DNA of 64,000 nucleotides from contig OZ241875.1 of NCBI GenBank assembly GCA_965203325.1, positions 3,296,001 through 3,360,000 of the forward strand, written 5' to 3'. The notes beneath the pieces were generated by a model. It searched no databases and was not told where the DNA came from. It saw nothing but the letters and a program-made list of their open reading frames with translations. How positions within the stretch are numbered: position 1 is the first letter of the stretch; each line of letters opens with the position of its first letter. Source of the stretch: a bacterium. GTDB taxonomy: Bacteria > UBA8248. The position numbers and the translations under genes are program-made. Of this stretch, positions 20,959-23,277 are shown piece by piece.

Positions 20959-23277
20959 GCGTGGAAATCTGTGATGCCGAAAGGCGTTGAGCACTTATCA
21001 CTAACCCGGTTCGAACGAGAACCAGTGATGCGTGGAAATCTGTGATGCCGAAAGGCGTTGAGCACAGCAGGACGCCGTTTCCCTTCTCTCCCCGGTAGGC
21101 GCGTGGAAATCTGTGATGCCGAAAGGCGTTGAGCACTGGGACATGACGTTGAGGCCGGGGGATAATTTCGAGCGTGGAAATCTGTGATGCCGAAAGGCGT
21201 TGAGCACGGATCAGATCGGCAAAGACTTCATCTGGTATGACGAGCGTGGAAATCTGTGATGCCGAAAGGCGTTGAGCACACTAAAACGCTAGATAAGGAC
21301 ACTCTTTTGAAGTGCGTGGAAATCTGTGATGCCGAAAGGCGTTGAGCACACGCCAACGCGCCGATGCTATGCCGACAAATGTACGGCGTGGAAATCTGTG
21401 ATGCCGAAAGGCGTTGAGCACATGATGATGATTAGAATCAATGACAACCGATTTAGCGTGGAAATCTGTGATGCCGAAAGGCGTTGAGCACATGTTCTCC
21501 AGGTGGACCCGCTCCGAACCTATCCGCGCGTGGAAATCTGTGATGCCGAAAGGCGTTGAGCACATTTCGAGACGGCACACGTTCACCCACAGAAACGAGC
21601 GTGGAAATCTGTGATGCCGAAAGGCGTTGAGCACAATCTTACACCGGAGAGGATGAAGGAAATCCGCGAGGCGTGGAAATCTGTGATGCCGAAAGGCGTT
21701 GAGCACATGAAAGGTATTGGAAAGCGTGGAAGTTGGGATTTAGCGTGGAAATCTGTGATGCCGAAAGGCGTTGAGCACGCGTGCAAGTGCGCGAGGACTG
21801 GCGGGCCGTAGAGCGTGGAAATCTGTGATGCCGAAAGGCGTTGAGCACAAGTCTCTCCATTCTGACATAAAGGTTGCTTCAAGGCGTGGAAATCTGTGAT
21901 GCCGAAAGGCGTTGAGCACAGCATATCTTTCGGGAAGTTTTGCCAGTTGTCTTGCGTGGAAATCTGTGATGCCGAAAGGCGTTGAGCACATTAAATATCC
22001 TAAAACACCATATTCCCCTTGGAGTGCGTGGAAATCTGTGATGCCGAAAGGCGTTGAGCACTGTAAGAAATGCAATGCTATAATAATCGTGAAAAAGCGT
22101 GGAAATCTGTGATGCCGAAAGGCGTTGAGCACGGCATCAGCCCGGAGGGAATCGCGCAGCTTGTATTGCGTGGAAATCTGTGATGCCGAAAGGCGTTGAG
22201 CACATGTTCAGGATTTCGGCGGTTTCCTGGCCGGCGCGGGCGTGGAAATCTGTGATGCCGAAAGGCGTTGAGCACTCAAGGGTGAATTACAAGAAAGAAA
22301 CCCTCCCAAGCGCGTGGAAATCTGTGATGCCGAAAGGCGTTGAGCACTCGGGAAAGAGCACGTCGTAGTCTTCCTGGTTCAGCGCGTGGAAATCTGTGAT
22401 GCCGAAAGGCGTTGAGCACATGTATTCAGGTTTGACGCCATTGAGGGTAACGCTTTGCGTGGAAATCTGTGATGCCGAAAGGCGTTGAGCACTTGATGAT
22501 TTCATGGCCGGTTTGCGAGCAAAAGTAGGGGCGTGGAAATCTGTGATGCCGAAAGGCGTTGAGCACATGAGAGAAAACAAGGCATTTACGGAGCTCGGCA
22601 AGCGTGGAAATCTGTGATGCCGAAAGGCGTTGAGCACCAGTCGGACCCGGAGCGTTTCCCGGGCTACGCGGCGCGTGGAAATCTGTGATGCCGAAAGGCG
22701 TTGAGCACCGCAAGGCAGGTGAAGACTGGATACCCTCCGCGACGCGTGGAAATCTGTGATGCCGAAAGGCGTTGAGCACAACTCGACTGTGCGGGCTTCT
22801 ATGTCAACGCGGGCGCGTGGAAATCTGTGATGCCGAAAGGCGTTGAGCACCGTCCAGATAGGCGAGGATAACAGCCTGATAGTAAGTGCGTGGAAATCTG
22901 TGATGCCGAAAGGCGTTGAGCACTATTTTCCCGCAGCGCAGCACGCCTTCAAGCCGCGCGTGGAAATCTGTGATGCCGAAAGGCGTTGAGCACATGTACT
23001 CTCCCATGTCCTTTTTGTGCGGGCACAGTGCGTGGAAATCTGTGATGCCGAAAGGCGTTGAGCACTAGCGGATGGGGTCGGAGTTGTCGTTCGACCACTG
23101 CGTGGAAATCTGTGATGCCGAAAGGCGTTGAGCACATGTTGGACAAGGAACGGGCTTGCAAGTTGAATAGCGTGGAAATCTGTGATGCCGAAAGGCGTTG
23201 AGCACACCTCGGCTCTCTTGCGCTCAGAGGTCATCGTGCGGGCGTGGAAATCTGTGATGCCGAAAGGCGTTGGCTGA
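20959..23277 (+). CRISPR. CRISPR array: 33 repeats (GCGTGGAAATCTGTGATGCCGAAAGGCGTTGAGCAC, 36 bp; last one degenerate) and 32 spacers of 34-38 bp
   Basis: Counted directly; GCC-GAAA-GGC hairpin and TTGAGCAC 3' end typical of Myxan/Leptospira I-B repeats. Confidence 0.98.

Follow-up and report, generated by a model that had tools for sequence, protein, structure and literature searches.

Removal of the PAM by Cas4 is regarded as almost free of errors. The closest described relatives of the locus analysed here are the MYXAN systems (MxI-B, Cas8a1/Cmx1) of myxobacteria, cyanobacteria and Leptospira, which have the same order of cas genes and share with its array a 36-nt repeat ending GGCGTTGAGCAC, spacers of 34–38 nt and, probably, an ATG-type PAM. 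Published work gives the PAM of Leptospira as ATG (37 of 53 hits; PMC9372919), that of myxobacterial B-type arrays as ATG and then TTG, with a degenerate WTB form (PMC11237760), and that of Synechocystis PCC 6714 as AYG (PMC11096372). A fused Cas4/1 like the one encoded here is also present in type I-G systems (Geobacter 7MI4, Methanosarcina barkeri), but those use a TTN PAM that is removed with high fidelity, whereas the present protein is of MYXAN type and scores below the Cas4g/Cas1g cut-off (438 versus 560 bits).

PAM bases inside the spacer, as proposed below for this locus, are known from PAM slipping in Haloarcula, Legionella and Sulfolobus. Slips in the Haloarcula hispanica I-B system total 3.3% and range from −2 to +3 with no −3 class listed, and minus slips lengthen the spacer (PMC5416893). 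Legionella pneumophila I-C slips occur at 0.1–2% each (PMC5602111), and slipped spacers of Sulfolobus I-A lose interference (bioRxiv 486738). As far as these sources go, known slips amount to a few percent, grade off with distance and are mostly of ±1, whereas the array described here presents a single candidate −3 class at 25%, with neither intermediates nor a change in length. A literature search that covered few subscription papers listed no description of natural arrays whose spacers keep the PAM or in which a −3 class dominates.

A MYXAN-type locus with a Cas4-Cas1 fusion

The window, meaning the whole 64,000-nt stretch of DNA that was analysed, belongs to a bacterial genome referred to below as G000. 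Profile searches placed every gene of a complete operon, ordered cas6-cas3-cas8a1/cmx1-cas7-cas5-cas4/1-cas2, above curated cut-offs. The features, in window coordinates, are as follows.

12784..13422, + strand: cas6/cmx6 (TIGR02807, 171 bits against a cut-off of 99)
13431..15656, + strand: cas3, HD and helicase (TIGR01587 and TIGR01596 above cut-off)
15644..17233, + strand: cas8a1/cmx1, Csx13-type large subunit (TIGR03485 and TIGR03486 above cut-off)
17230..18105, + strand: cas7/DevR (TIGR02585)
18110..18784, + strand: cas5/cmx5/DevS (TIGR02586)
18787..20427, + strand: cas4-cas1 fusion, 546 aa (TIGR00372 and TIGR03983; aligned to 7MI4)
20379..20708, + strand: cas2 ORF (TIGR01573; a shorter form was used in tblastn)
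20709..20958, + strand: AT-rich leader between cas2 and repeat 1, which aligns with the leader of the sister locus in genome G014
20959..23277, + strand: CRISPR array of 33 repeats of 36 nt (the last degenerate) and 32 spacers of 34–38 nt

An ATG at about 20424 is a likelier start for cas2 than the start of the ORF. The Cas8a1/Cmx1-type large subunit, the presence of Cmx6, DevR and DevS, and a MYXAN Cas1 fused to Cas4 support classification of the locus as type I-B MYXAN with a Cas4-Cas1 fusion, and the TIGR models agree with the subtype and fusion named in the first-pass annotation. The repeat, of the ...GATGCCGNNAGGCGTTGAGCAC class, is present in 32 exact copies, the first at 20959, followed by the degenerate copy at 23242. 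Its core also adjoins homologous cas genes elsewhere, and no exact copy of the full repeat was present in the metagenome contigs.

Upstream of cas6 lie a tyrosine recombinase (9093–10490) and a RES/Xre-like antitoxin (11566–12183), which suggests that the operon resides in a mobile island. The segment 8544–9073 is common to this locus and that of G014 at 86%. Directly downstream of the array, on the minus strand, is a 665-aa ankyrin-repeat protein (24551–26548) with 102-nt repeats, whose matches to ankyrin models are below cut-off. Orphan single copies of the I-B repeat are found far from cas genes at G000:C1:512824, G005:C8:789300 and G003:C2:808300; the flanks of the G005 and G003 copies are 96% identical, and the G000 copy sits in a different context. 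The genome also carries a second CRISPR system (L201, G000:C1:4244356-4251200) with cas1, 39 repeats, spacers of 29–31 nt and a frame of about 1,000 aa, which we take from its RuvC motif to be Cas9-like; this system looks like type II-C.

Spacers that begin with ATG, the probable PAM triplet

A recount of the array reproduced the figure of the first-pass annotation, in that eight of the 32 spacers begin with ATG.

21422..21455, + strand: spacer 7, 34 nt (begins with three ATG in tandem)
21492..21527, + strand: spacer 8, 36 nt
21707..21742, + strand: spacer 11, 36 nt
22204..22239, + strand: spacer 18, 36 nt
22420..22456, + strand: spacer 21, 37 nt
22567..22601, + strand: spacer 23, 35 nt
22994..23029, + strand: spacer 29, 36 nt
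23136..23169, + strand: spacer 31, 34 nt

The composition of the spacers predicts 0.53 such starts (binomial p = 4e-8), and any other first triplet occurs in at most two of the 32 spacers. The excess yields p = 3.7e-6 against a codon-phase-aware baseline, the 3.0% frequency at which ATG follows ATG in the genome, p = 1.4e-4 with a 5% baseline, and p = 0.0013 when positions 1–3 are permuted independently. ATG spacers show no trend along the array (p = 0.26). At the 3′ end no spacer terminates in CAT, as had also been remarked from the sequence alone, and one of 32 terminates in AT; these counts exclude a symmetric Cas1 preference. The orientation of the array is given by the AT-rich leader after cas2 and the degenerate repeat at the opposite end, and the 3′ end of the repeat equals that of the experimentally oriented Leptospira I-B repeat in Table S2 of PMC9372919. 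The leader position and the matching repeat end therefore place the ATG at the PAM-proximal end. At the other, PAM-distal end, the second-last base is G in 18 of 32 spacers here, 12 of 23 in the related array L049 and 16 of 41 in G014, compared with 28% in the family. This preference is specific to the lineage and resembles that for C at −3 in Haloarcula.

How does this compare with related arrays? The sample comprised a genome scan of at least 123 loci, 25 metagenome loci and 18 viral loci. After 19 contigs of one genome and all overlapping loci were merged and spacings outside 29–45 nt excluded, 2,441 unique spacers from 79 arrays remained, with G014 kept separate. Among the loci listed, ATG begins 60 of these MYXAN-type spacers (2.5%, versus 25% here) and stands at position 4 in 54, such that the slight excess in the family is explained by codon phase and by A/T-rich first five bases. 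The enrichment in arrays with the same repeat core that the first-pass annotation had led one to expect is consequently absent beyond codon phasing. In Leptospira Lai, ATG begins none of the 20 listed spacers, as opposed to 8 of 32 here. Since the Cas4/1 fusion is present in nearly all related loci, among those listed, with cas genes in view, the fusion alone is not the cause of ATG starts. The earlier proposal that the fusion often integrates prespacers with the PAM retained fails as a general trait of such fusions, also in the nearest relatives L049 (0/23) and L018 (3/113), where the excess is absent, and survives as the best single reading for this lineage.

Retention throughout the family was likewise rejected, given that ATG begins 6 of 143 long spacers (+3 or more) and 48 of 2,077 others (p = 0.16), in addition to the baseline of 60 versus 54. 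Weaker excesses of ATG starts occur in L012 (4/34), L029 (4/46) and L079 (6/88). Across 42 other arrays, ATG starts are mildly overdispersed at position 1 (p = 0.016), and position 25 behaves likewise (p = 0.001). Among spacers with a W-W-S start, ATG accounts for 8 of 12 here and for 14% in the family (p = 4e-5). The ATG excess is real, local and not accounted for by the behaviour of the family.

Several observations support ATG as the PAM of this repeat family, as the first-pass annotation had stated for the subtype. In one Gemmataceae genome, spacers that overlap one another perfectly reveal six times the triplet lying upstream, with ATG in three cases and TTG, GAT and TCG once each. Counts of ATG by offset in the family spacers run 60, 22, 32, 54, 36, 28, 43, 23, 23, 39 and so on, with an in-phase mean of 43.6 versus an off-phase mean of 27.1 per 2,441 spacers, and family spacers are thus codon-phased to their PAM. 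Genes of G000 served to train a codon-frame likelihood for ranking 64 anchor triplets, and for 2,346 family spacers ATG ranks first of 64 (ΔLL 198). For the 24 non-ATG spacers of this array ATG also ranks first, weakly (ΔLL 3.2; 3.2–5.3 for the locus). ATG leads for Cmx1-type loci but takes only eleventh place of 96 motifs among Cmx8-type loci, whose PAM may be a different one; no PAM was inferable for G014 from codon-frame analysis of its spacers. The phase between spacer and PAM means that first-triplet baselines need phase correction and that PAMs can be ranked from spacers alone, and the literature search, with its small share of subscription papers, returned no report of such phasing.

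One explanation of the excess is chance: with a codon-phase baseline of 2–3%, a very large scan would have picked out an extreme draw. That baseline is higher than the first-pass annotation assumed, and the exact ATG excess is not seen again in the three closest systems. Moreover, ATG at position 1 of this array is the most extreme (4.9e-6) of 11,328 tests of array, position and triplet, but the next test reaches 3.1e-5, only a sixfold gap, which indicates somewhat heavier tails in the empirical null than in a binomial one. Against a chance origin, the motif and its position were fixed beforehand by the PAM and give a p of about 4e-6, the sister system in G014 has an excess of AT starts, and the 42 other arrays show the mild overdispersion noted above, with L012, L029 and L079 among the arrays concerned. 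On this evidence we consider chance unlikely.

An alternative hypothesis is that the PAM lies upstream as usual, that the ATG spacers are correctly processed and functional, and that the lineage prefers A-T-(G) at positions +1 to +3 because A/T pairs beside the PAM fray more easily, because spacers are codon-phased and because of an additional local sequence preference. Throughout the family, spacer positions 1–5 show an excess of A/T and a deficit of G, which fits easier unwinding next to the PAM, access to which depends on terminal A-T pairs (bioRxiv 2022.05.30.494039). The pooled sisters (9/73) fit independent position biases (p = 0.30), the lineage does have a further local preference in its second-last G, and no mass production of useless spacers has to be assumed. 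However, positions 1–3 are not independent within the array, as the permutation result and the share of ATG among W-W-S starts both argue, removal of the eight ATG spacers leaves no A, T or G excess over in-phase rates, and the match of the preferred triplet to the PAM would be coincidental. Such a preference is a somewhat unlikely explanation.

Protospacers would reveal the flanking triplets directly, and none were found in the searches performed. In the array's own genome the best full-length match has at least 9 mismatches and there is no self-targeting, which rejects a survivor bias from self-targeting. Searches of INPHARED phages and PLSDB plasmids returned only fragments with E values of 2–9 and the repeats of other arrays. 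For this array and that of G014, a search of 41 family genomes, with at most seven first-look candidates scored per genome, returned repeats only, along with one weak 31-nt piece that has 14 mismatches over the full spacer. In IMG/VR, 18-mers of three of the eight ATG spacers gave 0–2 matches each, all with 12–14 mismatches across the spacer, and no spacer flanks appeared among the matches listed for contigs of four sequencing runs at the locus.

Processing constraints and the sister system

Could the PAM end be set by something other than Cas4? Candidates are a start codon or the 5′ end of an mRNA, cleavage by a restriction enzyme, the second (type II) Cas1-Cas2, and an over-duplication that copies three bases from the preceding spacer. 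Frame 1 is stop-free in all eight ATG spacers compared with 17 of 24 others, and the genome does contain a second cas1 and array. However, translation from the ATG spacers extends over only 16–54 aa, and the codon model assigns most of them to an antisense frame (−2 frame mixture 0.64, sense in-frame 0.16; best frame +0 in 2 of 8), which rejects start codons as the source. Restriction at CATG was rejected since the genome shows no avoidance of this tetranucleotide (0.97), and crosstalk with the type II system was rejected since the spacers of that array measure 29–31 nt, share no overlap with those studied here, and the genome has a single cas4. Over-duplication was rejected as well, in that the first bases of neighbouring spacers are no more alike than in shuffles. 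A factor of this kind is quite improbable.

The lengths of the ATG spacers are normal (34–37 nt), as first reported, and average 35.5 nt versus 35.3 nt for the others, which rejects an addition of 3 nt (p = 3e-5) and with it untrimmed +3 prespacer ends. In a test for a ladder of slips across the 32 spacers, three begin with G, two begin with TG, and ATG at position 2 or 3 does not occur, so graded slipping with −1 and −2 classes commoner than −3 was rejected for this array.

The Cas4/1 protein aligns to Geobacter 7MI4 over residues 6–536 (E = 6e-69), with D72 and K87 corresponding to Geobacter D87 and K102. All catalytic and Fe-S residues are present (C19, C171, C174, C180, H45, D72, E85-x-K87 and Q103/Y107), and the Cas4 cysteines, H45, D72, E85, K87, Q103 and Y107 are all unchanged in 50 of 50 homologues. 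At the positions corresponding to N17, E18 and L25 of the type I-G PAM pocket, the protein has the consensus residues H14, A15 and L22. Judged from sequence, Cas4 looks intact, with no visible lesion behind the ATG starts, and a dead Cas4 would be at odds with these residues. The proposal that Cas4 fails to trim the PAM thus appears to fail on both spacer length and the apparent integrity of the protein. In the Geobacter enzyme, D87/K102 mutation abolishes PAM selection and leaves spacer length unchanged (PMC6547450). Normal length, the lack of a ladder, a clean far end and an apparently intact Cas4 together point to an event that is discrete, specific to the PAM end and length-neutral.

Among 51 genomes of the phylum, only G000 and G014 contain a MYXAN Cas1 above cut-off. 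Their Cas4/1 proteins are sisters (92% identical, support 100/99), and the next relatives among the loci listed are L049 (85–86%) and then L018 (67–68%). The G014 locus (L154, G014:C1:3242186-3250412) has cas6, cas4/1, cas2, the leader and nearly the repeat in common with G000, while between the conserved cas6 and cas4/1 the cas3-cas8-cas7-cas5 cassette is replaced by one of Cmx8 type. Beside the swap junction the N-terminus of the G014 Cas4 is altered (M11S, A17T, E26Q, E27H, E30N). E27 is invariant in 49 homologues apart from G014. The YLEEVEE motif of this N-terminus is altered, which may reflect a co-changed PAM specificity. A recent effector swap is unlikely as the cause of the ATG starts, since L042 retains the cas6-cas5 cassette of G000 and the junction into cas4/1 at 76–77% DNA identity; the pairing is therefore old, and the swapped system is that of G014. 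L042 itself has lost cas4/1 and cas2 by deletion, and its array comes straight after the cassette.

ATG begins only 1 of 41 spacers in G014 (Fisher p = 0.008 versus this array). Nevertheless, A occupies position 1 in 22 of these spacers, T position 2 in 20, and AT begins 10, with p values against the array's own in-phase rates of 8e-4, 2e-4 and 6e-4, respectively. By AT starts, a motif that was picked after seeing G014, this array holds the first place among 45 arrays and that of G014 the second. Because the motif is post hoc and the near-ATG count of G014 is also high at offset 9, G014 constitutes a partial replication only.

A proposed second loading register

We hypothesize, with a probability of roughly 0.5, that the leading ATG is the PAM itself, kept in the spacer through a lineage-specific second loading register. 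The Cas4/1-Cas2 complex of this lineage would possess a discrete second register equivalent to a −3 slip of the whole prespacer. In the usual register, 5′-CAT-3′ would lie just beyond the overhang; in roughly one event in four, the 3′ overhang that carries the PAM would instead be captured with 5′-CAT-3′ as the final three bases of an overhang of 6–8 nt. Binding by Cas4 would select and shield the triplet, and cutting at CAT would leave an overhang too short for integration. [quoted passage not shown] Spacers acquired in this way would have a random triplet at −3 to −1 and would mostly fail in interference.

The family PAM is ATG, the excess is confined to positions 1–3 of the PAM end, lengths are normal and −1 and −2 slips are lacking; capture of CAT inside the overhang is what we infer from them. 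Published work on M. barkeri Cas4/1 bears on this capture in both directions. Overhangs of 6–8 nt are integrated in vitro and those of 3–5 nt poorly, and an unprocessed PAM strand is integrable from a half-site substrate, but in a plasmid assay integration at the PAM end required cleavage by Cas4 (all PMC10274657). The excess of AT starts in the sister G014 (10/41, with a post hoc motif) supports retention of the PAM, and the lack of an exact ATG excess in G014, L049 and L018 argues against it. That known slips are far rarer and graded is an argument against a second register and is also the source of its interest.

More tentatively, the small clade of G000 and G014 might carry a second, heritable register by which roughly one in four spacers of normal length keeps the PAM although Cas4 is intact. 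The motif that is kept would depend on the N-terminal segment of Cas4, being ATG in this array and AT-N in G014, where the segment is altered and Cas8 is Cmx8. If a quarter of spacers are shifted by one PAM with neither a Cas4 lesion nor a change in length, this would expose a coupling of PAM binding, cleavage and the overhang ruler in Cas4/1 fusions. A heritable register, if true, would amount to natural high-rate PAM-retaining acquisition, with a PAM that is readable in the array and spacers that possibly feed priming.
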